From the NCBI GenBank assembly GCA_028534125.1, contig CM052816.1:21516001-21580000 (forward strand): 64,000 nt of DNA, read 5' to 3'. This DNA comes from Lama glama (taxonomy: Eukaryota). Shown here in pieces: positions 4,488 to 54,301 of the stretch. A model generated the notes under the pieces. That model did not search any database. It had not been told where the DNA came from and worked only from the letters and a program-made list of their open reading frames with translations. Both the position numbers and the translations under genes were made by a program. Position 1 is the stretch's first letter; every line of letters starts with the position of its first letter.

Positions 4488-6170
4488 TGTTTAAAATTGT
4501 GATAAAAATAACATTAAATTTTGACATCATAACCATTTTAAGTGTACAGTTCCATAGTATTAAATATATCTACATTGTTGTGCACAAATCTCTAGAACCT
4601 TTTCATCTTGCAAAACTGAAATGCACTAAGCATTAACTCTTCCACTTCCTTTTTTCCTCCTTCCCCCTCCCTTTGTAACCATCTTTCTAATTTCTGTTTC
4701 TATGATTTTGACTGTTTTAGATAATTTGTATGATTGGAATCATACAGAATTTGTCATTTTGTGACTGACTTATTTCACTTAGCATAAGTGAAAGATCACT
4801 TAAGTTTCCTCCTTTTTAGGCTGCATAATATTCCATTGTATGTATACACCACATTTTCTTTATTCACTCATCCGTAGATGGACATTCAGGCTGCTTCCAG
4901 CTTTTTGCTATTGTGAATAATACTGTGATAAATATGGGTGTGCAAATAGCTCTTTGAGATTCTACTTTGAATTATTTTGGATATATACCCAGAAGTGGGA
5001 TTGCTAGATCATATAGTAATTCTATTTTATAATTTTTTGAGGAAATCCCATATTGTTTCCGACAATGCTGCACTATTTTACATTCTCACCAATAGTACAC
5101 AAGGATCCCAATTTCTCCATATCCTTGCCAACACATGTTTTCTGTTCTTTTGATAGCAGCCATCCTAATGGGTGTGAAGTGGTATCTCACTGTGGTTTTG
5201 ATTTGCATTTCTTTAATGGCTGGTGATACTGAGCATCATTTCATATGCCTGTTGACTATTTGTATATCTTCTTCGAAGGATTGTCTATTCAAATCCTTTG
5301 CCCATCTTTTAATCAGGTTGTTTTTTGTTGTTGACTTGTAGAAGTTCCTTTTACCTTCTGGATATTAACTCTTTATTAAATATATACTTTGCAGATATTT
5401 TCTCTCATTCATAGGTTGCCGTTTTGTTCTGATGTTTCCTCTGGCTCAGAATTTTTTTTAAGAGTGATGTAGTACCATTTGCTTATTTTTGCTTTTGTTG
5501 CCAGTACTTTGGTGTCATATCCAAGAAATTGCCATATTCAATGTTCTGAAGCTTTTCTTCTCAGAGTTTTATAGTTTTAGGTCTTACACTTAGATCTTTA
5601 ATCTGTTTTGAGTTAAGTTTTGTACATGGTGTAAGGTATGGGTCTGAATTCATTTTGTTGCATTTGAATAACCAGTTTTAATAAAACCATTTGTTGAAGA
5701 GACTGCCCTTTTCCTGGAAAGTCTTGGCATGCTTGTTGGAAATCATTTGGCCATATATGCAAGGGTTTATTTCTAGGCTCTCTATTCTGTTCCATTGGTT
5801 CATATATCTGACTTTGTGCCAGTGCAACACTGTCTTGATTTCTGCTGCTTTGTAGTATATTTTGAAACCGGGAAGTGTGAGGCTCTGAACTCTGTTCTTT
5901 TTCAAGATTGTTTTGACCATTCAGGCTTCCTTGAGATTCCACATGAATTTTAAGATATTTTTTCCTAGTTCTGCAAAAATGCCATAGGGATTTTGATAGA
6001 GATTGCATTGAATCTGTAGATTGGTTTGGTTAGTATGGACATTTTAGTGATATTTGAGTCTTCCAATCCATAAGCATGAGATGTCTTTCCATTTATTTGT
6101 ATCTTCTTTGATGTCTTTTAACAATGTTTTGTATTTTCAGTGAACAAGTCTTTTATCTCCTTTGTTAGGC
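4488..6170 (-). mobile_element. L1 (ORF2 C-terminal region and 3' UTR), nested in older L1 debris
   Basis: ORF 5678-5920 reads LTLPGFKIYYKAAEIKTVLHWHK..NQWNRIESLEINPCIYGQMI, a classic L1 ORF2 segment. Confidence 0.92.
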
Positions 6171-11739: not shown

Positions 11740-11815
11740 TCAGAATGAAGTTACTAGAACTTTGGGATTTTCTTCTTTCTCCATGGAATCTTTTGTTTTT
11801 TTCCCAAACCTGAAC
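11740..11815 (-). CDS. SLC22A4: SLC22A4 exon 10, coding part to the ancestral stop
   Basis: Acceptor TTCAG|GTTCAG; reads FRFGKKTKDSMEKEENPKVLVTSF followed by TGA; 76 bp. Confidence 0.94.
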
Positions 11816-14432: not shown

Positions 14433-14567
14433 CCTTTCACTTTCTGCATCTGCTCAAGGTCTCTGGTAGAGTCATTCCAAAACTTTCAGGGAAAAAAAGG
14501 GTGATGATTCCAATCAGGACAGTCAGGCTTCCCATGAGGATGTAGGGCAGAACTCTGTTGTAAGCAC
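14433..14567 (-). pseudogene. SLC22A4: SLC22A4 exon 9 with a 1-bp deletion
   Basis: Acceptor TACAG|GTGCT; reads [36 protein letters not shown], then TT- GAG CAG ATG CAG AAA GTG AAA; donor AGG|GTAAGT. 135 bp instead of 136. Confidence 0.93.
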
Positions 14568-15575
14568 CTGTAAGGCATGGGACAAAATCAATTAGATACA
14601 GGAATTATTCAGATGCTCTTGAGAATCATTTTATAAAGGTGGCAAACAGTATTTAAGAGCAGTTTTAAATCTGAATATTTACAGAAGAAAAAAAGCACGG
14701 AAAATGTCAGTTTCTGTTTGGCAAATGTCATTGCCCCCGCATTTCCATAATCACTCACCTACCTGGTTTTTGCATTATCATGCAGTCGTTCATGTCAGCT
14801 GGTATTCTCTAAGCTTCTACTTAATTATGCGTGATAGATGTTCAGCTGATAGAAATTTCTGCCTACCAAAGTTGTCCTCTTGGACATTGAAGGTCATTGG
14901 AGATGGGAGATGGGAGGACACCAAGGGGCAAGAGGTTGACTAGGATGTTGCAGGGACAGGTAGTGGCTGTTATGACTGGTTGGACATTTGCTTTTGACCA
15001 AATCAGTAGGCTAGGTCCACAGAGCTGTGAGACTCTTTTAAAAAACCTAAGTAATATTTTTAATCCAGTTTAAATCAAAAAATTTCAGGCACTGTGGTTT
15101 CTGTTTGCAGCATTTGTATATCTTGGTTTTATATGAAATTGGAAGAACACTCCACCTCTCCTTTATCTGGCGTTACTTAGACAGGAAATAATAGATCCTT
15201 ATCTTGCTCCCCTTCTGCCTACAGAGATTACACAGTAACAACACACCCAAGAATTTTATTTGACAAAAATGTTCATCTTGAAGCTTCTCTGAGGTCTCTG
15301 TGTCATGAACAGGAGTAGCTGTTGTGGAACAGAAAGGTTTTGCTCAGACTCCTCCATTTCTTCTGTACCAGTGGTCCACCATTAGGCCACATGACCATGC
15401 TTTGAAAGTACAGGGAAGAACAAAGGGGAAATGACACCAAAATATATAATAAAGGACTTTCTCAGGTATTGTTCAGGGCAGCTGTGTGGAATATGTTTAA
15501 AATAGGAAAATGCTTCTCTTTCTCTGTAAGGATTTAGAGTGTACTTTTTCTGAGAATTCGTGTATGTCTCTGAGG

Positions 15576-15577
<2 letters not shown>

Positions 15578-15606
<29 letters not shown>
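15578..15606. repeat. (TG)n microsatellite
   Basis: About 14 TG units. Confidence 0.95.
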
Positions 15607-15610
<4 letters not shown>

Positions 15611-15759
15611 AACCAGCAGGTAACCTATGGACGACTAGGAAGAATAAGGAGCTGTGTCTACATCTCTCACCAGTAGCGTTCCTGATGGGGATTAGGCTTG
15701 ACGTGCCAGAGCCTACATCCAGTGAACAACCTACTAAAGCCATTCTGTAGTGTTATTCC

Positions 15760-16690
15760 AGATGGATAAATTTGATTATATAAAAACTAAAATTTCCTGC
15801 ACTGCAAAAAATGTCATAAAGTCAAAATGTAGATGATAAACTAGGAAAAATATTTACAATATATATACAAAGGGCTAATATTTTTCAATTACAAAGAGCT
15901 CCCACAAATCAAAAATAAAAAGTTGAATAAACCATTAGAAAGATGAGCAAAAGACATGAACAGTCAGATCTCTTAAAAATAAATAGAATGTCAATAAATA
16001 CATGAAAAATCTCTCAGTCTCATTCATAACTGAAGAAAAGGAAATGAAAGCAACAATGATACCATTTTTCACATAGCAGATTATCAATGATTAAACAACT
16101 GGATAATCCTCAATGTTGCTGAGGATGTGGAGAAACAGGCACTTTTATATATTTTATAGTTAGATTGTGAATTGGTACAATATCTAGAGGTCAATTTTGC
16201 AATATCTATGAAATTTTTAAATTGCTCCAGCAATTCATGGATCCAAATGTACAAAGGGTATGAGGGCATAGGGAATTGTTTATTGCAGTGTTATCTGTAA
16301 TAACAAACCTGAAAATGGCCAACTGTCTATTCATGGGCCTACTTAAATAAATTATTTATATACATACATACATTTAAAGTCTATGTACTAACTAAAAAAA
16401 AAGGTAAAAGGGCTATATATACCAATATGGAAAGACATCCTGATACACTGTTAATTTTTTAAAAAAATTGTGAAAGAATATTTATAATATAATTTTTTGT
16501 GTGTTTAAAAACATACATATACATATATATATGGAGGAAAAAAACATCTGAAGGGCCACTCACCAAATCGTTAATATTAGTTTCTTCTAGAGCTGTGATT
16601 TGGGGAACTGAGAGAAAAGAGGTAACTTGTACTTTTTCCAGTACTTTCTATGCTGTTTGTATTTTTCACAAGGGAAATCTATTACTTTTA
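15760..16690 (+). mobile_element. Old L1 (L1ME-like) 3' region in intron 8
   Basis: A-rich sense L1 sequence (aatgttgctgaggatgtggagaaacaggcac). Confidence 0.7.
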
Positions 16691-16729
16691 TATTTTTAAA
16701 AAAGAACAGACTGATAAGATGCATCTCAC

Positions 16730-16912
16730 AAAGGTAAACAAAGTAGGGAGCAATGATGCTGCCCACTCTGGAGGCCATGGACGTGATCCCCACAGCCTTG
16801 TTCCTGACCAGGGTTGGGTAGAGCTCTGCAGTGAAGACATACAGCATGGAGAAGGCAGAGGTGATCCCGAATTTTCCTAACATGGCCAGACCAATGGACA
16901 AGAAGTTGTAAT
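16730..16912 (-). CDS. SLC22A4: SLC22A4 exon 8 (frame open, last base T)
   Basis: Acceptor GCCAG|ATTAC; reads (D)[60 protein letters not shown]; donor TTT|GTGAGA; 183 bp. Confidence 0.94.
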
Positions 16913-17750
16913 CTGGCAAAAAGAGACCCAGTGTAAACAGAGATGCTTTTAGAAGCATTATTTTCCTAATTCAGTTGCTGATATTGTCCTTTTTGCTAAT
17001 ACAGGAATGTTTTATAACGTAAAAGTGTTCCCCCAAATTACGCTTTATCTTCAATGTCTTACTAATTGGACATGGACAAAGACAGAGTGTGAGGGGTTGC
17101 TTTGAGCTTTGTTCTTCTGAATCATTTATGCATTCAATGACCTTTGTCCACTTTTATTTACTACAACAGTTTCATAGTAAGCTGTTAGCATGTTAATATA
17201 GTTAAGTTTAATATTTGAAGAGAAGGACCAATCCTTTTTATCTTGTTTATTGTTATTAAGAAATATATATTTCTATGCATAATACTATATATCAATAATC
17301 AGTTGACAACATTTTAACAACATGAAAAAATTAGACATAGGGAAAATGAGAAGCATGTATCTTTTCATGTGGTTTCTAACTACTTAAAGATTACAGACCA
17401 AATTTATACTGGAATTGACATGTACTACCAACTCAGAGAGAAGGTCTGAAGGTACCAAGAAATTGGGAATCAGGACTGTGACTCAATGAGAGAGGTTTCT
17501 ACAAGGACAATTACCGGGAGCATTACTCTTCCTCTTCAGGTGGTAATTTCTGATTCTCCGAGGCTAACTTTTATGTTTGAGGGGAGTAATTTGAACACAG
17601 GAAATCACAGAGTTTACTATCACTTGTTTAACTGACTGATGAGTTGTTTATGATGTAAAGGCTACATAAACAGGGAGCAGTGACTAATAATTAGCCCAGT
17701 GAAGGTGTGGATTTTTTCTGGTAAGCTGTTAATATTGGATAATTTCTTAC

Positions 17751-17965
17751 CTGCAGGTACCAATTGAATTAAGAGAAGCACACCTCCTGCAAAAAGCAGT
17801 ACTCCAGCTATGACATAACACCTGGACAGGGTTTGAAGTAGCAGCCAGGCTGTAACGTAAGCTGGAACTTCAATCAAGGCAGAGAAGAAACAGTTCAGGT
17901 AGGCATCGCCATGTAAATTAGGAGTGTTGAGAGACAGAGCAAAGTAACCCACCGAGGTTAGCATC
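17751..17965 (-). CDS. SLC22A4: SLC22A4 exon 7 (frame open)
   Basis: Acceptor TTCAG|GATG; reads [71 protein letters not shown]; donor CAG|GTAAGA; 215 bp. Confidence 0.95.
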
Positions 17966-18059
17966 CTGAAAGTCAAGAGAAAAAAGACAAAAATGACAAA
18001 AGAATGACTTGAATTACTTCACAGTTTCATGATGATCAAGAAATTGTCTAGATCCTCCT

Positions 18060-18262
18060 GCCTTACAAGCAGACACTAGCCACAAATAGCTATTTAAAAG
18101 TAAATAAATTAAAATTAAATAAAATTGTAAGTTCCATTCCTCAGTGTGGCACTAGCCATACTTCAATTGCTTAGTAGCCACATGTGGCTAATAGTTACTA
18201 TGACGGACAATACAGATATAGAACATTTTCATCAATGCAGAAAGTTTTATTGGACAGCTCTA
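18060..18262 (-). mobile_element. MER3-like hAT-Charlie element
   Basis: tagccacatgtggcta palindrome; terminus cagaaagttttattggacagc. Confidence 0.8.
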
Positions 18263-18422
18263 GTCTAGATATGCCAATGTTCAACAATACCTCTCCTAGT
18301 CTAGTTAATTTCAAGTTTCAATATTTCCTGAAGAGTGTACATTCTCATTCCTGCAGAGCTATTATTTGAAGAAGGAGTGTTGGTCACATCAGTGAACATA
18401 AAACCTGTATTTCATTCTTACC

Positions 18423-18487
18423 AAGAAGAAGAAGGAGAAGGGGAAGAAGGAGGAGGAAGAGAAGGAAGAGAAGGAGAAGCAGCAGCA
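18423..18487. repeat. Purine-rich (GAA/GGA)n low-complexity tract
   Basis: aagaagaagaaggagaagggg...gaaggagaagcagcagc. Confidence 0.85.
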
Positions 18488-19631
18488 TAGGTAATACTGT
18501 GGGATCCACTTACAGTAAATTCCAACTGATTTAGTAAAACTCATTTTAGGGAAAAAAGAGAAAGCCCCATATTGCTTCAAAGTATCACAGAGTGCATATT
18601 TCCATATCCTGTCTTTATAGTTAACTTCCATGTAAAAGCTTCTCTGTGGAAGAAAAACCATACTATGCAGAAATTTGCTTATTATTAACATGACTGAAAA
18701 GCAGAGGGCTTCTGAAAAATGTTTTCAGGAACACTGTTGGATCTTTTTATACATACTCTACTAGGTTGGATAGCACAAGAGCTAATCTAAAACAATTTTT
18801 AAAAACTGAAGCTTTAATTGCTCTAGGTGATTTTCACATTAGGTAATGAGAGTAGCCTAGATAAAACTAGTGACTAGTTTATTACTGGCTCAGTAGTGCC
18901 ACTACTTGAGATACATTTCCATCAATGATATATGCTGACATGTAAGAACTAAGGAGGTCTATTTTGAGGAAAGCCATATGCCTAGGACACACTTGCTTAA
19001 TTCAGAGGCATAAACTCTGTCATTGACTTCTTCTAATTGCAGAACAGGATGGCCCTAAAAATAGACAAGCTGCAGTCTGGACCTACTCTTTTTAGTGCTG
19101 CCATCATGGGGTAGGCATGTTCTTTTTTCCTTCTTCCTCATTTCTTGGCAGATACATTATTAAATCTAGTCTACAAAGTCAATTCAGTATTTCTATGCCT
19201 TAAAATCCACTTGGTAGATGGCTATTAGCAAGTATTAAAAGATTGTCAAAACTCCAATCCAGGCACTGGGGATTCAAGTTATTCCAGCCTTACTCATCAG
19301 TTGCCAGTACAGCTTCAGGAAACAGGAGCTGAATTAGCATCTTGGCTTCAGGCACCAGGGACCTCATAAATCTTAATCCCAGGAACCTTGGGAGGGATGG
19401 GGAACCCTTTCCCTGTGGGTCACAGTATTGCAGACTTAAATACTGTCCCTTGTGACTTTTTTTTTTCAGTAACCAGTTCCATGAATTAAATTGAGGCCTT
19501 CCCAAATAACTTAGAATTTTAAAATTTTAGTTTCATCTCAGGAAGACCTAGGCCTTGCCCTGATCATCCCTTGAATTAAAGAAAATTAGCTGTATATTTA
19601 CATGTAAAATCAAAAAACTAAATCTATTTAA

Positions 19632-19855
19632 TCAAATGAATCTATATACAAAACAGAAACAGACTCACAGACATAGGAAACAAACTTAAGGTTACCAAAG
19701 GGGAAAGGGAGGGTAAGGGGAAAATTGGGAGTATGGGATTACTAGATACAAACTACTATACATAAATATGCAGCAAGGATTTACTGTATAGCACAGGGAA
19801 CTATACACCTGAAAGTAACAGACCATTATAAATCAACTATACTTCAATAAAAACA
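19632..19855 (+). mobile_element. Short young L1 3' end (artiodactyl type)
   Basis: caaatgaatctatatacaaaacagaaacagactcacagacatag...ctgtatagcacagggaactata...aatcaactatacttcaataaaaa. Confidence 0.85.
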
Positions 19856-20259
19856 ATTGGAACTAAAAAGTTACAAGGCTCTGAGGTGGGGAATCTCTCC
19901 AGGATAAAATCTCTCTGTGGCCCTATGATGTGTGTGCAGTAAGAGGTTGAGGAAGGAATTTCTACTAAGAAGGAAGTAAGACTGCCAGACCTCATTATAG
20001 CAGGTGCTCCCCAGATATTAGCATCCTTCTTTCCAGAAAAAATCAGACACCTCCTCATGCAGCTTACAGCCATATGACCTTTTGGCTTTTGTACCACTTG
20101 GAGTATACAGCTCTAGAGCACGCCCCCGAAGCATAACCCTGTTATCACAACAAAGCAAAGCTCCTATGAAACTACTGGGAACTAGCAGTCCTCCTGGAGA
20201 GCTCTGGGGGTGGTGCCAGGCACAGACAGGATCATGCTAACGCTTGATGCTTCCACAGG

Positions 20260-20388
20260 ACTTGTGAAAAATGCAGATTGCCAGGTCCCACCATGGGCCT
20301 GCTTCATCTGAATCTTTCCTGGAGCCCGGCCTGGGAATCTGGATGTTTAAAGGGATGACTGTGATAAGCATCCAGGTTTGGAAACCTG
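20260..20388. mobile_element. MER5-like DNA transposon fragment
   Basis: cttgtgaaaaatgcagattgccagg...ggcctgggaatctggatgtttaa. Confidence 0.6.
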
Positions 20389-22084
20389 AGAACAAGAACA
20401 TTCTTGTATCCACTGCTTGTTTGTCTCTGGCCTGTACAGAGCCACTAAAATGCCTTTGGACCAGGCTGAAGGTGCTTCAGAAGAGAAGCCAGAGAAGCTC
20501 AACATCTCCTTCCAAGCTGATACTACTCCATATTTTTTCCTGTTCAAATTAATGCCACTGCCCCTTACATGAGATAAGAAAACACAGCTTTTAAGAGCAC
20601 ACACTTTGGCACCAGAGAGACTTCGGAAAAGCACAAGCTCCCTTTCCCTCCACAGGCTCATCTAGTTGACACTCGATGTGCCTCGCGGCAGGAAGAAACC
20701 AGGCGTGCTGTCACAAGCGAATTTTCACACTGGCCTTTATTTTTACTTGTCTGTAACTATTTATCTCTTCTATATTTTATTCTTGCTTTCATCCATGTAG
20801 GTCTGATCTTTAATACTAGACTATAAGTTCCTCAGAACAAGAGTCAGACCACATATCCACTAAATATCAACAAACACCCAGGACAGCTCTGAGATGCACA
20901 AGTGTTAGACACTCCCAATGTTATTTTTGTATCTAGTCAAACTGACAAAGGCTGGGAATGGAATTCTTGATCTGAAGAGCAAAGCATTAAGATATATTTG
21001 CCCTGGCAGCCCTTTGAGAGCTTGGGTTCATGGCCACTGTAATTAATCCTCCGGTCATCACCAAGGTATCTGCTCCTGTCAAAGGCCACAAAGACCAGGG
21101 ATGGAGGAAGCCCTCAGGGTAAGGCACTGGCATGCCTGCCTCCCTTCACAGAGTCCTGCTTTCTGGGGTGGCCTGGAGCACAGATGTGAGCATGGGGAAA
21201 GCAAGCAGACTAAGAAGCATATGGTCTTGATGGGGTTTCCTGAGCAGCCCCCCACCCTTCTCCTAGCCAAGAGTGCCCTGCCCCACCCTCTCCATCCATC
21301 TGTGTGTCCTCCCTGGTTTGGACTCTTCAGCCCTGAGTCACTCTGCTCGCTTTCTCTGCTGGATCACAGTGTCCACTCACTGGGTACTTCCTCCCTCATG
21401 TCATCCTTTATCTTCCATCGAAACCTCTTGACACTCAGTTACATTCTCTGCTCCTTAAGCACAGAAACTATGTCTAATTTTTCTTGTTTTCTCTAGGAGT
21501 TGGCACGGGGCATGGCTGAGGACACTGTGAGTCCTCACTGACTGTCAGGAAGTGCATCTGCTTCCATAGGATACCAGCTGTTTTCTCGTGGCCTCCTGCC
21601 TGCAGGGGTGAATCCTCCAGCCTGAGCTCTCAGGCATCAACATGACACAGCAGGACTAAAGACATGGCACAACTTCCTCAGCAGGCTTTGGTAAGATTCA
21701 GGGGACAGTGGGGAACCCGTGGGTGGAATACCCCTCAAACACATTTTTCCCACTTAAACTGGACATTTGAAAAACAGCTGTATGTATCTGCATCAATGGT
21801 ATGGAGCAAGACCAACAAAAAGTTGAAGATAAGCTTGCAAAAGGGAAAGGAACTAGTATTTAATCAACACTTGTTCTTTGCTAAGCAGTTTACATATATT
21901 ATTGCACTTACTTGGCCCACGGCCCTTTGAGGTAGATTTTATCTCAGAACTTCATCATTATTGTGTCTCTAAGGCCTTGAACAATGCCTGGTACATAGTG
22001 GGCACCCAAAACATAGAGTCAAATTAAAGTCCATGATCAAGAATGCATAGATGATTTCAAGAGGAAACATCTACAAAGGCTTAC

Positions 22085-22210
22085 CTCCACAGGATCAAAA
22101 ACCATGACTGGGACAGCTACGTTGTTCACTTTTGCAGCTTTTTGGATGGTATCTTCAGCTTCTTTAAATCTTCTCTGGGATATCAGCCACCGGGGAGATC
22201 AGGAATAAAC
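22085..22210 (-). pseudogene. SLC22A4: SLC22A4 exon 5 with a 1-bp deletion in the PESPRWL motif
   Basis: Acceptor TTTAG|G TTT ATT CCT GA- TCT CCC CGG TGG CTG; continues [33 protein letters not shown] in the shifted frame; donor GAG|GTAAGC. 126 bp instead of 127. Confidence 0.93.
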
Positions 22211-23269
22211 CTAAAATTCACTTTTAATGGTTTATAATTTTTCACAGTAGCAAGGTTTGATGTTACTAATTGTAAGTTGCCCCCGAGTAATTTTTATTTT
22301 GTAAAATGCTAGTTTGTCTTTTTAAAGAACATCAGGAGGGAAGCCTCATGTGAGTTCCATTGATTGTAGGAACAAATAAAAGTACCTTCAAGTTTCAAAT
22401 TTTTGATCAAATCATAGAACCGATCATCAGTTGTGCTCGAAGCCTGGACCAGACTTTAAGGGGTAACACTAACTGTGGGCATGTTTAAGCCAGGGCAGCT
22501 GGAGTATGCCGTTCAAAACATTATAGCCAGTGTGGCTTAAGAGAAACACAGCCTAGGGTCTTTTCAGTGTGTCTATCCCTGGGAGCATCCCTGCTGCCCC
22601 AGCTGGTGATGCTCACAAGTTTATCGGGTAAGAGAGGGCATCTGTGTTCCTCAGGCTTTTCCGGCAGTCAGAGGAGGAGGTGAGCATACTGACATCCTCC
22701 TGCAGGCTGTCCCCAGGGCTTTCAACAGATTCCCAGCTCAGTGAGCACCCAGACCAGTTTTGGGGAGACAGATAATGTTGTCTTATTTTTTTTTAATGTC
22801 TAGAAACATAATTTTTTATTATACAATCTATCCACATTTTAAGTGATGCTCAAACACAGTTGACTTCTTTCCTAATTTTTCTATTTTTTCTATTTCTTTT
22901 CATCATGATTTATTTAATTTTCCTATTCTTTCCTCATTTTTATTTCTCAGAATTGCTTAGCCATCCTTCTGTCCGGTCTTGTTGCTCTTGCTTTCCTTAG
23001 CTATTTGTCAGTACTTAGTTATCCTAGAAAACAAGTTATATGTAGCAGATACCGAGACCTCCTGTAATTAATGGGCCCCTCCAAGGCCTCAGTAGGGATT
23101 ACCTCAGAGCAAAACACAACATACAGAATGGCCAACCCCCAGCTTCCATTCCCAGCCTACTACTAGCATATGAGTTGAAAAATGAATCCAGTTTGCATTT
23201 TTCAGATTGTACCCTTAGTTGGTCCCTGTAGCAACTGTAATGATGGGAGGTCACTGACCTTCAGTAGTT

Positions 23270-24717: not shown

Positions 24718-25946
24718 CTCTCATTCCAGAAAACTTCCCTGCTCGCAGACTGGGTCAGGAACTCAAAATCGTATCTACCCCCTAACACACTACCTCTCAA
24801 ATTCTAGGGAAGTAAGAAAAAATTTCTCTCTCTCCCCCATGCACACCCATGCCAAGAATCTGCACTGGTTAAACCACAGCAGTCTTAGAGGCACCCAAAG
24901 GACAGTGGTTCGGAGTGGTCTAACTTGAGCCACGTGATCCAACAAGGCCAGGAAGTACTACCTGTCAGCCTCTACGGCTGCCTGACAGTTGCAGCAAGAT
25001 GAAGGCCCTGCTGGGAAATCTCCTAAGGCAGTGTGACCACACGACGGGGCAACCACGAGGGCTAATGAGTTCCAAAAAATGACCATTGTGTGTAAGCAGG
25101 TAGAGATGAAGCAGTTCAGCAAAAAACAGTCACTGCTGGGAGATTTGACTATGATATCATGAGACCAAACCAAGACTAATTAATAAGAGAGAGAGAGAGA
25201 GAGTGCCAGACCCACCAATGGAAAAATAATGCCCTTTCCTCTTGCTTAAATATGAAAAAAAACAAAAAAATGGGGAATTCCCCCAAAAAGAGGGTATGGC
25301 TAAGGACTTTATTCCATTATTCTTAATCTTTTCTCTCACTTGAAATTTCCCACTTAATCACACTGGGTGAAAATGGGGCCAGTATCTCAACACTTTGTTA
25401 TTCCTACACTGCTGTGTCAAAATTGGGCTGGAGGGTTGTAGGGGGAGAGAAGAAAACATTTCTCCAACAACTCTTTAAACAAAAGCAATTCTCTCCCCCT
25501 TCAAGACAAAGCAGATAAACAGGCACATCTTAGATGCTAATCATCACATGATAGGGATGCTTGAAGAAGCTACATTAGTTGAAACCATAAGGAGAAAGAG
25601 GTTTGCTAGAGAGAGAAAAGTGTCAAAAGAGCAGGGCGGGGGCAAAATTAAAAACAACCAAGCCCACAGTATCATCTCCACAAACAACAACCAGCAGTAA
25701 CAGACAAGAATGGGGAGAGCCTGAGTGGGAACTGGGTTTCCTGAGAACCGAGCTTTGTGGGCCGGTGGAGAATCACACCCCAGCATGCGGGCTCCCCCCA
25801 CCACAACGAGGCAAATGGTCTCTGGGCTTCGAGGTCGCAGCTCACTGCAGTGAGATCAGCAAACCCATGCTAGGATCAGCACCAGGCTCTCGGCTCCAGG
25901 CTGCTGGCCTGCAGCAGGGGGCTGTCTGGGATGGAGCCTCACTCAT

Positions 25947-26117
25947 CACCACAGCGGGACACACAGCACCCTGGCACCATCAGCACCAGCAGCAGCATCC
26001 ACCAGTCTCTGATGAAGTAAGCAAACAGTGGCAGCAGCATGTAGCCAAATGCATAAAATATGCACACTCCTAACGTAGAGAATATAATACGAACTGACTT
26101 GCCAAGAATTTCTGCTC
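25947..26117 (-). pseudogene. SLC22A4: SLC22A4 exon 4 with a 1-bp deletion and a mutated donor
   Basis: Reads (G)[48 protein letters not shown], then CCA GG- GTG CTG TGT GTC CCG CTG TGG TG. 171 bp instead of 172. Followed by ATGAGT rather than GTGAGT. Confidence 0.93.
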
Positions 26118-29639: not shown

Positions 29640-30268
29640 GTATCATTTTGGAAAACATTCTAGCAGTTCCTTAAATGGTTAAACATAAAATTCCCATATG
29701 ACCCATCAATTCCTCTTGGAAAACAGCCTGGCAGATCTTTAAATGGTTAAACATAAAATTCCCATATGACCCAGCAAGGTACATATCCAAGAGAACTGAA
29801 AACATAGATCCACAAAAAAACCTTGTATTCAAATGTTGATAACAACATTCTTCATAATAGCCAAAGAGTGGAAACAACCTAGATGTCTATCAACAGATGA
29901 AGAGATGAACAAAATGTGGTTATCTCCTACAATGGAATATTGATTAAATGCTACAGCATGGACCAACCTTAAAAACATTAAGCGAAAGTAGTCAGTCACA
30001 AAAGCCACATACTGTATGATTCCATTTATCTGAAATATCTGGAATAGACAAATCCACACAGATAGAAAGTAGATTAGTGGCTGCCAGGGACTTGGGAAAA
30101 AGGAGAAGGGGGAGTGACTGGTAAAAGGGTTCCTCTTAGGGGTGATGAATATTTTCTGGAGTTAGAGTTTTTGGTTGTACAACTTTGCGAATATACTAGA
30201 AACCACTGAATTATACTCTTTTAAAGAGGTAATATTATGGTTTGCAAGTTCTATCTCAATTTAAAAAC
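29640..30268 (+). mobile_element. L1MB-like 3' end carrying an internal 68-bp tandem duplication
   Basis: ttcataatagccaaagagtggaaacaacctagatgtctatcaacagatg...tatctcaatttaaaaa. Confidence 0.85.
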
Positions 30269-31205: not shown

Positions 31206-31705
31206 NNNNNNNNNNNNNNNNNNNNNNNNNNNNNNNNNNNNNNNNNNNNNNNNNNNNNNNNNNNNNNNNNNNNNNNNNNNNNNNNNNNNNNNNNNNNNNN
31301 NNNNNNNNNNNNNNNNNNNNNNNNNNNNNNNNNNNNNNNNNNNNNNNNNNNNNNNNNNNNNNNNNNNNNNNNNNNNNNNNNNNNNNNNNNNNNNNNNNNN
31401 NNNNNNNNNNNNNNNNNNNNNNNNNNNNNNNNNNNNNNNNNNNNNNNNNNNNNNNNNNNNNNNNNNNNNNNNNNNNNNNNNNNNNNNNNNNNNNNNNNNN
31501 NNNNNNNNNNNNNNNNNNNNNNNNNNNNNNNNNNNNNNNNNNNNNNNNNNNNNNNNNNNNNNNNNNNNNNNNNNNNNNNNNNNNNNNNNNNNNNNNNNNN
31601 NNNNNNNNNNNNNNNNNNNNNNNNNNNNNNNNNNNNNNNNNNNNNNNNNNNNNNNNNNNNNNNNNNNNNNNNNNNNNNNNNNNNNNNNNNNNNNNNNNNN
31701 NNNNN
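31206..31705. other. Assembly gap (500 N)
   Basis: Run of N in intron 3, flanked by identical 125-bp sequences. Confidence 0.99.
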
Positions 31706-33906: not shown

Positions 33907-34061
33907 CTAGTATGAAGGCCACCACATAGTTGGAGATCTGGCCCATGCCGACGATGACAAATAATACGGTGAACATCTCCCAGTTAATGGAAAAAATCTG
34001 CAGGAAGCTGAAGCCAGTCTGCACAGCCATGGTTATGAAGAGGATGGTCTTCCTGCCAAAC
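33907..34061 (-). CDS. SLC22A4: SLC22A4 exon 3 (frame open)
   Basis: Acceptor TACAG|GTTTGG; reads [51 protein letters not shown]; donor TAG|GTAAGG; 155 bp. Confidence 0.96.
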
Positions 34062-35397: not shown

Positions 35398-35501
35398 CTG
35401 TCTGACAGCTGCCCGGACATAAAGGACCCGAGGAGCACGCCTACGAAGAACAGGGAGATGGTGAGCTGCGTCTTCCAATCATCCTCACACGCCAGATTCC
35501 A
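35398..35501 (-). CDS. SLC22A4: SLC22A4 exon 2 (frame open)
   Basis: Acceptor GACAG|TGGAAT; reads [34 protein letters not shown](R); donor CAG|GTAAGG; 104 bp. Confidence 0.96.
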
Positions 35502-48420: not shown

Positions 48421-50539
48421 GTATCCCCTTTTATAGACAAGGAGACTGAGGCACTGAGCAATGATGTAACCTGCTAAAGTCATCCCACTGGTTAAAGACA
48501 GGGTCAGAAGTGGCCCTCTGGTCTGACTCCAGAACTCCTCCTTGTGCCATCGCCTCTCTGGGGAGAACCACCCCACCCTACCCACTTTCAAGCTACTCCT
48601 TTCCTTCCTCCCAACTACTAGTGCCCCTTTGCCTTTTATTTTACTCCTAGCACCCAAAAAGGAAGCCAGGAAGTGAAAGACTGCTGGAAAAAGCAAGTCC
48701 TGGTGTGTATGTGTGAGAGTGTGATGATGTGCCTCCCCAGAGGTACCCACAGGCCCCTGTGAAGAGCACAACAGGGATAGCTATGTACTTGTAAGCCAGG
48801 AGCTACCCACCCCTCACACCTTGAAGTGAACAAAACAAGCAAGAAAGGGGAAAGAGACAAGTCAGCCCAGCTGTCAAGGAGGGCTGCAGCCAGTAGGGCC
48901 AGCTCCAGCTCAGGTGCTGACGACACTTCCAGGACCAGAGGATGGGCAAGCACTAGGAGCCCCTGCTAGGAGATCAAAGCCAGAGAAGCACGGCCACCTC
49001 AGGGACCAGGGTCAGCATAGTGCCAATGCTGAGGGGAATCAAGAGGTGCTCCACATACTGAGTCCACTTTCCACAGTTCCTATTGACTCCACAGCCACTG
49101 CTCTTACCTGGCCACCAGTCTCCTGCCAAAACAATTCCCACAGCTTCCTCACTGGTCTTCTTGTTTTTCATAGCAGTGAGAGTGAGTTCTTACTCAAAAC
49201 ACAAATCTGGCCATGTTACCTCTTCCTTTGAACCCTTACTATTTCCTCACTGTCTTCAGAATAATGTCAACTCTTCAACATTCTTACAAGGCCATTGTGA
49301 AGATACCCCTGCAGACATTTCTAGCCTCACCTGCCATTCCTTGAGTTCCAGGCCATCTTGATCTATGAAATCCCATCCCCAGAATCTGCCATGTTCTTTG
49401 CCTGGTCACATTTCCAGACTCAGCTCAAATTTTAACACCTCTTCTTAAGAGTATTTCCTCACCCTGCTATCTCCACAGAAAAGGTAATTTTTGCCCCAGG
49501 TCACACAGTAAGCCTGTCAGGATTTGAATTCAGGTTCCTGAACCCTGTTCCTAACCAGGTATGATGTTAGCTGACTCTAACATGGCCAGTGTGCCCTGTG
49601 GGCATCTGAGCTTTGAAAGCACAAGGCCAGGCATGGTATCCTATTACTGTCCCACTGTGCTGAGGAAAGGAGATAGAAGACTAGCAGACACTATGCTCAG
49701 GTTTTCACATAGAGCAGAGGAGAGGCCAGAAGCTGGGAAATTCTACATGCCTGATTTAACAGCAGAAAACGAGTCTATGAGGGTAACCTCTTCAGAAGAT
49801 GTGTGCTGATCGAGCATCTCCTGGTCCTTATCAAATGCAAAATAGGAAATGCAGAGGACAAAGTATGTCTATATCTTGACTCTTGAAACTTAGAAATCCT
49901 GCCACTAAACCATGTCGGATGGAAGGGAGTAATGGCATAAGCTGGAGCCCTTGTCCACCTCTAGGCCCTGTGCTCAGATGGTCTCTGTGAGTCTGTCTCT
50001 TCATGAGTGCCTTGAGGTCAGGGTTTCCTGCACTTTGCCAGTATCAGGAGGTTCTCTGCTCCTTTCTAGAGAAATTGGAGCCTCAGGACAGGACCCAAGC
50101 CTCACCATAGAGAATGACAGAGCAGGAGACCCTCTGATGCTTCCAGAAGTCTGTGGGCAGGGAACAGGCCAGATCTGCCAAAGCCCTGCCCAGCAGCAGG
50201 GCTCTTCTTTGTGTCTGCATGTGGGCTCAGCAGCAGCCCCCACACCTTTCCTCAAGCCTGTGGCAGGAACTTGACTCAGGCTGTACATCTGGGGAGCCTG
50301 GGGCCGGTGGTGTCTAGACTCTTGGGAAACAACTTGGTCTGTTGTGAAACTGTCAAAGGAAAAGGCAGATGACAACGGCCTCCTTTCTTTCTTCTCCGTC
50401 CCCTTCATATTAGACAGAACAATTAGGAATGAGCCTAGGTGAGTTCTGCTCTCTCTGGCTGCACAACCCTGTCGTGCGTCAGCCAGGTTTGATGAAGAGT
50501 CGGGGACGCTGATCCAGGCATTGCCAGGGAGTCTAGGCG

Positions 50540-51760
50540 GGGAACTGATACAGATGAAGGGTCGCTCATACACTCACCTCAGTCACAATGGTGGACAAGT
50601 AGACGTCCTGGCTGAACTCCCAGCCATCCAGGCAGCTCTTCTGCTCCAGCTGCTCCAAGTCCACGTCGCGCCCCGGCTCCAGCCCGAGCGCCAAGAAGTT
50701 GACGATCGTCGCGAGGCGGTAGCGGCGGCAGCCGTGAGGCACCTCGCGGCCGTCCTGCAGCCGCAGCGGGAGACTGTGGTTGCGCCAAGCGAGGCTCAGG
50801 TTCGCGGTGTCCGGCACCCGGCAGCGGTGCTCCGGGGTCCCCGCCAGGAACACTACTGGCATACCGTTGAAGCCGTTGGGGATGATGCTGGCGCTGAGCA
50901 GGAGGAAGATGAGGCGCTGGAAGGGCCCCCACTCGCCCAGGAAGGCGGTCACCTCGTCGTAGTCCCGCATGCTTCCCGCTGCTGCTCTGCAGTCTGCAAC
51001 AACGGGCGATAAGGGCGTCCCTCGGACAAGCGTCGCGCGGCGAGGGCGCTCCCCGAGGCCGTCAGAACGTTCTCGCGGGCCAGGCAGGCTGAGGGAAAGT
51101 GGAGCGCGCCGCCAGGGACCGTTCCCGGGAAGCGGGCTGCGGGCGTTGGTGAGTTCCTAGGAAATGGTCGCAAAGCTGGAAGGCACGGTATAAATTCGGG
51201 ACCACACCTCCATCCTGGCCGGGGCGGGGAGGGTGGGGCGGCCGGGACGGCCGAGGTGGGGCCCGGAGCGGCTCCCCCCGCGCTCCGCCCGCCGCCCCGG
51301 GCGACCCCGCGGTAGACCCGGCTGAGGCCTGGAGCTCAGGTGGGCCGCCCAGCTCCCGCGCACCCCGCGTGCCCCGCGACCGCCAGCTGCTGAGCGCCCA
51401 GCTCCGAGCCGCCGCGTTGGGCACCACGGGGGCGAGCGGGCGAAAGGGAAGAGCTGAGGCGGGAGAGCAAAGTCTTTGAGAGGTCGGGCCGCGGCCCTCT
51501 CTGTTGGCGTCGCCCAGGCCTCATCCGGGCGGGAGGCTCTCCCTTGCCACTTCTAACCCGGAGTCTGAGCTCAGAGGGCCTCGCGCGAGGCGTGGACGGC
51601 CGAGCCCGTGCCGTTGGTGCTCCCGGGAAACTTCTGTGGGCACAGGGGTGGCAGGAGCACACCATCTCTTCTGGCACACCGCTGCCCGAGTGGCCGGCAC
51701 CAGCCGACCCGGCCCTCGCCTCCGCCCCCATCCCCCACCCCACTTCTCCAATCCTAGAGG
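50540..51760. promoter_or_regulatory. CpG island and GC-rich promoter of SLC22A4
   Basis: Very high GC and CpG density over exon 1 and upstream. GC boxes (GGGGCGGG at about 51221, GGGGCGG at about 51235) and a RUNX-type ACCACA at 51201-51206. Confidence 0.88.
50578..50970 (-). CDS. SLC22A4: SLC22A4 coding exon 1 (frame open, 131 codons)
   Basis: [22 protein letters not shown]...[19 protein letters not shown]; 393 bp; donor GAG|GTGAGT at 50577. Confidence 0.97.
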
Positions 51761-54301
51761 GCTGGATTCAGTTACCAGCCTGCGGAGCCCAAATTGGCAT
51801 CTTCCGGACATCCAGGAGCCTCACCTCGAAAAGGGGGAAAGGGCCCAGTGCCCAGAAGGGATGAGCGAGATCACACTGCGTCAGAGATAGGCTGGGAGCC
51901 AGGGGCTACCGGGTCGTCCCAGGATCTTGTTGGGGCCTCTCGAGAAGATTTAATACGGAGCCTGGCCCTTTGTAAGACCGCGGTAATGGGAGCACCTCTT
52001 ACTGCTTTCACCACCCTGGGCTCTGATTTTGATCCCCCAGGGCTCTTCATCGGGGCTGGCTGCCAGAGTCTTCTTGGACTGGAAGGCGTCTGATTTGCGG
52101 AAGGGACCGCCCCACCCCGCCCTCTGCCCCAGTCCAGGAACGGAGGGGGGGGGGGGACGGAGGAGGAGAAGGTCCAGCTTGGCACCCAGATCTGGCAAGG
52201 TAACCAGAGTAGGGACCAGTCCGCTCAGTGTCCAAGCCTAAGACTCCTTTCCAGTCGGATTTTTCACCTGGGGCAAGTACCTCATTCCTTTCATTTGCCT
52301 CAGGTTTTTCCCAACCCTCATTACTATGGGTGACTGAGATTCCCACTTGGACCTTCTAAAGAGTCATACAGAATGAAGCAGCGTCTGTTTCCTAGTTCTG
52401 GTTCCATTGGTCAACTCCCCTGCAGTCCCAGGCTGCATATGTGTGAGCCAAACAGGTACCACTCAACTGAATTGTTTGCTACCACCCAAGAAATCCTTAC
52501 CTTTTATTTATCCAAGGTAAATCCATACCTTGAACCATTTAGCCTTCCATATGAAATGAATGCCCAAGTACACTGCTTACAGCTGGACCCCGGGAGGCTT
52601 TCTATTCACCAGTGTCCTTCAGTGCCACTGCTAAGTGGGGCTGTGTTGCAGTAAGAATCCATTTTTTGGCTTGTATCTTCTGTGAGACAGGGCTGAGTAT
52701 TTTTCCCCCTATCAATTGGTTATAGAGAACTACCCTCATAAGACCACAGGTCTGAGTTGGGGGCGAAGTGTTGATATAGCTGAGATAGGTGTCATAGGAG
52801 TCTGAATCACCAGTTCATTAACTTAAGCTGTATGGACCTGCTCAGTCCTGATCCTGACACTACCATTTCTATTATATGATGGATTGCTGACATGCCTGCT
52901 TAATCTTATGACTTGATAGAATCTGGCAATACCTAGCTTTTACTGGACATTTCTAGTTGCCTAGACCCTTGATATCCCATGGCCAGGCACTCAATTTTTA
53001 CTGTAGCCATGTAGTTGCTTTTCAAATGGCAAATAGCTCTCTGCTACAGAAGGCATGACCTTGTTATGGAGATCTGTACTGAAACTCTTTTATTAGGGCC
53101 TATCTCTTTTATCAGAGGCTCTACTCTGCATTCTTATCACCATGAACATCTCTAGCACCATGGATTCTGCTGGGTCATATGGACCAAATGGCAGGGAACC
53201 TTGTACTATAGTTGGACACACTGTAGAGCTCTCTCTGGGCTTCACTCAAAAGTGAGAGTTTTCTCAGGCACCCATTAAATGGGTTATAGTAGTATTCCCA
53301 CGAAGCACTATGTCTTTATTAGTGGTAGAGGGTACAGGGTACAACAACTTGCCTTTACCTTACAGAGGATGGCCTGGCATGTTCCAGACTACTGAATCTC
53401 TAATAACTTCACCAATTGGCTTCAAAATAATAAGGAATGAAAGAAGTGGGTGAGCATATAGATGAAATAAGATTGGCCATAGTAGTGGTCCTAGGGATTC
53501 ATTTTACTAGTTTGTCTACTTTTATATACATTTAACTCATTCCAGAACAAAAAGTTAAAAAAAAAAACAAACAAAACAAAAAAACATTTGTCAGCATGCA
53601 AGGCCCCGAATAATACTTTTTATCTCCTATCTTCTGTCATGGATGTGTCTTACTAGAACATCTGCTCACTAGGTTATGACATATTAGCATTATGTAATCG
53701 ATACAGTAAACCATCGTGATATTCTATGGAAAATCAAGACAATCAAAGTCACTAAACACTGTGATAGAGAGCAGAAGAATTAACGCAGCCCAGGGGCAAG
53801 GCAGTGAATATATACTGCTGTTCATCCCCACATAAAAACAAACTGTTTTGATCCTCCTTACTGAAGGATATTAAGAAGATAATCTTTGATGTTGCTGTTA
53901 ATCTCTGAAATTCCATTCAGGATGTCGTTTTACTTCTGATGTAATAAGTTGGTCAAAAACGTGGGTGTGTTAGAGGCTTCTGCTTGGCCCCTCCTGCCAT
54001 AATTGCTCTTATTTTATAGAACAGGGAGTAAATATTAGGGTCTTGCCAGCTGCTAAGTGTACCTAGTTATGTACTTAGGGAACAGGGAATGAGAGTGTGG
54101 ATCTTTAGACCCATTAGACTTCCTTGCAGGAGAATTCTGTTTACCAATTGGCTTTCACGAGCCCCTAGTATAACTAGGGGACCATAATGGTATTTCCCAT
54201 TCCCTGGTATCAGTGCCAATGCACAATCTGTATCCAACAGCCCTTGAAAGGTTTGCGTCTTTCCCTTTCCTTAGGCCAGAGTTACTCTAGTAAAAGTTCA
54301 C

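Follow-up and report, generated by a model that had tools for sequence, protein, structure and literature searches.

SLC22A4 as a probable decaying unitary pseudogene in a camelid, with a one-base deletion in the PESPRW segment of exon 5

The SLC22A4 gene in the window (the whole stretch of 64,000 nucleotides analysed here) is best read as a camelid unitary pseudogene in decay. It carries five disabling lesions: frameshifts in exons 4, 5 and 9, a lost exon 4 donor, and a missing exon 6. Introns and a CpG-island promoter of its own show that it is not a retrocopy. The exon 5 deletion, judged from the assembled sequence, is very probably of germline origin and a scar in a dead camelid gene. By itself, such a one-base deletion is an ordinary pseudogene scar.

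A search with exon 1 returned 750 proteins, the best 120 of which are mammalian SLC22A4 or SLC22A5 proteins or unnamed. Using four proteins retrieved in this way, tblastn mapped nine SLC22A4 exons between positions 50970 and 11740, a span of 39 kb. The start codon is intact, as are the eight acceptors and all but one of the eight donors. Expected lengths for exons 4, 5 and 9 (172, 127 and 136 bp) were derived from residue counts in the pig protein P0045 and the intron phases. The features are listed below.

50500..52000, no strand: CpG island spanning the promoter and exon 1, kept; CpG observed/expected 0.62-0.96, GC 0.64-0.74
50578..50970, minus: exon 1, 393 bp, frame open; F23L, S38P, S94L and E112K at near-invariant columns
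~50800-50785 (exon 1) and ~26067-26049 (exon 4), minus: SLC22A5-like patches
35398..35501, minus: exon 2, 104 bp, AG/GT intact; V137A, P145Q
33907..34061, minus: exon 3, 155 bp, intact
25947..26117, minus: exon 4, 171 bp, one short; T221A, R259W, A264V, T266M; SLC22A5-type IFYAFG
25969..25971, minus: exon 4 G run short by one base, shifting the frame near codon 269
25945..25946, minus: exon 4 donor AT, not GT; closest GT options at +4 and -3, 5/9 consensus positions
22085..22210, minus: exon 5, 126 bp, one short; I298T
22198..22199, minus: PESPRW Glu codon short by one base
22183..22185, minus: premature TGA in the normal entry phase
17966..22084, minus: intron of 4,119 bp, expected site of exon 6 (about residues 318-349)
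17751..17965, minus: exon 7, 215 bp, frame open; P402S, R404C, G414A (alignment columns)
16730..16912, minus: exon 8, 183 bp; M465K; last position T, G being required for Gly482; donor 5/9
14433..14567, minus: exon 9, 135 bp, one short; one-base loss at ~14455, stop at 14439-14437
11740..11815, minus: coding part of exon 10, normal stop

The T at 16730 both changes Gly482 to Cys and weakens the exon 8 donor to 5/9. Elsewhere in the window we noted a 68-bp tandem duplication (29648-29777, 1.9 copies, 90% match) and short frames at 5096-6029, which we take to resemble LINE-1 ORF2 remnants. No Rfam family matched in the window.

Read on the minus strand from 22210, past the acceptor AG, exon 5 begins G TTT ATT CCT GAT CTC CCC GGT GGC TGA. 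The Glu codon of PESPRW is short by one base, between 22199 and 22198, and the remainder of the PESPRW segment continues in the next frame downstream, in an exon of 126 bp against the 127 expected. Among 327 proteins fetched, all 248 that match the pattern [FVL]IP.SP[RQ]W have Glu at the position of the deletion, and the order of tblastn matches makes the exon with the deletion the fifth coding exon. The initial annotation had described just such a deletion in this motif of exon 5, with an early TGA at 22185-22183 in the normal entry phase; the coordinates prove exact, the stop is read directly on the minus strand, and both the motif identity and the exon number agree with the protein comparison. 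A stop is met in every one of the three entry phases, at 22201, 22166 and 22185.

Two microbial contigs (L002:1459-1482 and L004:456-479) encode IPESPRWL in DNA so similar to the exon 5 motif that it matches, which points to deep conservation of the motif. A predicted 307-residue isoform from the bat Rousettus (P0025) finishes in the shifted frames of exons 4 and 5 that are seen here (CCASRCGG...NLPGG); it arises from an earlier change in exon 4 and is probably a prediction artefact.

Exon 6 left no trace in the intron at 17966..22084 or in the rest of the window by tblastn, local alignment, frameshift-aware alignment or HMM. Scores in the frameshift-aware alignment were 38 and 28, where reversed DNA gave 30 and 27; the best real-strand score of an HMM built from 55 distinct ortholog peptides was 1.2 bits, against 5.4 for reversed controls. 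A 500-N assembly gap at 31206-31705 lies within intron 3, a position out of order for exon 6. An intact ten-exon frame of 551-553 residues with PESPRW, as found in the functional, sodium-dependent ergothioneine transporter, is absent from the window, and tblastn found no second OCTN gene within its 64 kb.

The assignment to SLC22A4 was examined in a tree of 22 proteins, comprising the read-through of the window (X at breaks), 15 hand-picked SLC22A4 sequences and 6 SLC22A5 sequences. The window sequence groups with artiodactyl SLC22A4 in a clade of eight (99/99), the six SLC22A5 sequences stand separate (100/100), and the window's tip length is 0.082 against a median of 0.035. At 37 paralog-diagnostic columns, 33 residues are of SLC22A4 type, two of SLC22A5 type and two of neither, and both SLC22A5-type columns fall in exon 4. 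We take SLC22A4 to lie between PDLIM4 and SLC22A5; the genes flanking it lie outside the window. The exon order and phases are those of mammalian SLC22A4 (OCTN1, ETT), and identity over readable residues is ~90-91% to proteins from pig (P0045), hippo (P0019) and baleen whales (P0016). The window gene differs from these in its three frameshifts, lost donor and missing exon 6, and in 15-16 changes where residues are otherwise invariant.

Two short patches resemble the paralog. The exon 4 patch reads IFYAFG, found in 2 SLC22A4-type proteins as against 90 with TFFAVG, and the exon 1 patch (LSLAW) reads SLAW where most mammals have SSAW, a reading shared, among 175 proteins, only with two alpaca SLC22A5 proteins. 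SLAW in exon 1 suggests gene conversion between the neighbouring SLC22A4 and SLC22A5 in a camelid, and the two patches together may be signs of conversion from SLC22A5. The assignment to a camelid likewise draws on this one motif and on the tree.

The coding sequence that remains readable shows the relaxation expected of a pseudogene, as measured at the protein level. Over 329 columns at least 97% invariant, 16 are changed in the window, against a median of 0.5 in 64 full-length orthologs. The highest ortholog counts were 19 (P0042, pig) and 6; all 19 changes in P0042 fall within a differently predicted exon 5, and that protein was left out of later counts. At 310 columns invariant in both paralogs, with five bat proteins as the SLC22A5 reference set, 15 changes were counted in the window and one in alpaca SLC22A5 (Fisher p=4.5e-4). 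With ancestral codons inferred and minimal change assumed, 12 of the 16 changes are transitions and 5 lie at CpG, a bias that looks like a germline pattern.

Decay amounts to ~0.020 changes per nonsynonymous site (0.011-0.033), for which about 1.8-3.7 indels are predicted, under assumed indel/substitution ratios of 0.06-0.12, and three are seen. At assumed rates of 1-2.2e-9 per year, the loss would date, very roughly, to about 5-33 My ago, a range that spans the split of Old World and New World camelids, put at about 16.3 My in the accessible text of PMC12127551. We regard a camelid-wide loss at or before that split as quite possible, somewhat short of probable. Whichever the case, purifying selection on SLC22A4 would have ended millions of years ago, with lesions accumulating afterwards at the neutral rate.

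The consequences for any transcript follow from the order in which the lesions are met. Transcripts become targets of nonsense-mediated decay (NMD) when a stop precedes the last exon junction by more than 50-55 nt, and the TGA at 22185-22183 sits 631 nt upstream of that junction. The initial annotation had named this stop as the trigger of NMD. Its distance from the junction agrees with that proposal, but it is not the first lesion that a ribosome would meet, because the one-base loss in exon 4, which already breaks the frame, and the lost donor precede it. It is reached only when a weak cryptic exon 4 donor (+4, -14 or -23 nt) is used or when exons 3 and 4 are both skipped; the remaining splice routes end at 22201, 22166 or 25941. 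A join of exon 2 to exon 5 is seen in 23 of the best 120 of the 750 proteins from the exon 1 search (LSDRFIPESPRW). None of 96 enumerated splice forms containing exon 5 reads through it, so any transcript with exon 5 from the surviving CpG-island promoter would be expected to stop there and be a target of NMD. The suggestion that the product would be the N-terminal half was not borne out, as predicted products have 174 or 275-284 residues and none is a clean half.

The promoter CpG island at 50500-52000 is well preserved despite the decayed coding sequence. It makes transcription of SLC22A4 possible (observed/expected up to 0.96), and may drive it or serve a neighbour. In RNA runs X16-X20, 0.07-0.20 of the words from 15500-23000 are present, which is not evidence of expression.

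Sequencing or assembly error bears on two other explanations. It is unlikely that, in a dead gene, the exon 5 deletion reflects a mistake in the assembly or is a polymorphism within the pseudogene. The base is called from the assembly, the scaffold is unfinished, as its 500-N gap attests, and if the codon was GAA the loss falls in an AA run; against this, neutral decay predicts three indels, and the other lesions show no selection remaining that would purge such a deletion. That the gene is functional, with every lesion an assembly error, is far harder to sustain and very improbable. The promoter island, the start codon and, apart from the exon 4 donor, every splice site are indeed intact, and the three small losses are single bases, but this explanation requires five errors together with 15 substitutions at invariant residues that show a transition and CpG bias. 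Moreover, about 0.7 differences would be expected in exons 5, 7 and 8 and seven are seen (P ~9e-6), the expectation being a crude bound, 0.0013 per base from a word share of 0.96 in a run that may be the window's source. The losses in exons 4 and 9 lie within G runs, which are also prone to sequencing error; 46% of coding bases lie in runs, and homopolymer context gives no separation of sequencing error from slippage. Of the 24 sequencing runs listed, 15, under five organism labels and from six studies, hold 0.89-0.96 of words sampled from 15500-23000. The stretch is therefore real and common to close kin, a single base being below the resolution of word shares, and the 4-11% of words unmatched in those runs leave room enough for the lesion sites.

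The other two explanations leave a protein product, from another locus or from this one. The window gene might be a decayed duplicate, and so not a unitary pseudogene, if the tandem OCTN cluster contains a second, intact SLC22A4. Duplication of this cluster in rodents (Slc22a21) is described in the accessible part of PMC7084758, and our comparison covers the 64-kb window, with the flanking genes outside. An intact camelid copy should nevertheless lead both long searches. No camelid SLC22A4 appears among the best 120 of 750 proteins from the exon 1 search, where alpaca SLC22A5 is present, or among the best 120 of 486 from the exon 7 search, in which pig, hippo, whales and ruminants (86-92% identity) rank after two longer turtle and sparrow proteins (65-73%). 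None was found among the 327 proteins fetched or the cluster members listed, 15 of 137 in the largest (90%) cluster, and an intact copy could hide in that cluster. We consider a decayed duplicate rather improbable. It is also highly unlikely that a residual protein is made by splicing from the +4 cryptic donor of exon 4 to exon 7. The resulting frame of 451 residues, the longest among 192 enumerated splice forms, stops 4 nt short of the last junction and so would not be subject to NMD. However, it skips exon 5, lacks exons 5-6 (the central loop), and presumably also the start of TM7; the end of TM6 is off-frame, the tail is lost, and an excess of missense changes is carried. Its donor matches only 5/9 consensus positions, whereas the splice sites of exon 5 are good.

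No second witness to the lesions appeared in the collections searched. Exact look-up found none of five window exon products, the window's private motifs are absent from the 327 fetched proteins, and all four candidates retrieved with the exon 4 frame, searched at that frame's own length, are without the shifted tail. A motif scan of metagenome contigs gave four loci, none matching the window by blastn and three of them distant MFS genes. The large SLC22A4 cluster also includes a 166-residue ground-squirrel protein named 'profilin-1-like' (P0192), likely a mislabel or chimera.

The reading as a decaying unitary pseudogene places this gene beside catalogued mammalian losses (Sharma 2018, PMC5865188; Hecker 2019, PMC6386725; Sharma and Hiller 2019, PMC7671337; Turakhia 2020, PMC7498332), which likewise combine multiple lesions with relaxed selection in an intron-bearing gene. 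Those studies require validation by reads and sharing among species, whereas the loss here is known from one assembly. Term searches of supplementary files from these four papers and a fifth found no mention of SLC22A4. Among the rows listed from the supplement of PMC13754592, one concerns SLC22A4 and gives a missense score, with no species status. PMC12127551, in its accessible text, sought losses in Old World camels that are not found in New World camels; a shared camelid loss would be unlisted there because only Old World-specific losses were sought. A bioRxiv preprint on the defensome names, in the part accessible, other SLC22 losses. In titles and abstract openings, neither a camelid loss of SLC22A4 nor ergothioneine levels in camelids were reported, and TOGA or RefSeq may already flag the gene as lost. 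The type of loss would thus be a known one, in an instance that we did not find in the literature searched.

Homologues of SLC22A4 occur across vertebrates, according to the accessible text of PMC7653990. The accessible parts of PMC9816654 and PMC11200860 describe its role in gut uptake and renal retention of ergothioneine, and name SLC22A15 as a weaker second transporter. In knockouts, the same sources report, ergothioneine is gone from tissues and red cells, and the animals are viable and more sensitive to oxidative stress. The Slc22a4 knockout mouse and zebrafish thus resemble the state predicted here. They differ in being engineered and short-term; the loss here would be natural and old, in a large long-lived herbivore, with a phenotype that is predicted.

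An animal with this gene would lack its main means of absorbing ergothioneine in the gut, retaining it in the kidney and loading it into red cells, and this animal, probably a camelid, looks, from its sequence, like a natural ergothioneine transporter knockout. If so, such animals are unlikely to retain ergothioneine given as a supplement. An ancient loss of the transporter would allow the debated question of whether ergothioneine is essential to be tested by one blood assay. If the loss is camelid-wide, all living camelids would be natural knockouts, long-lived and at home in desert and at high altitude, and would either do without this proposed 'longevity vitamin' or rely for its uptake on SLC22A15 or on a retuned SLC22A5.
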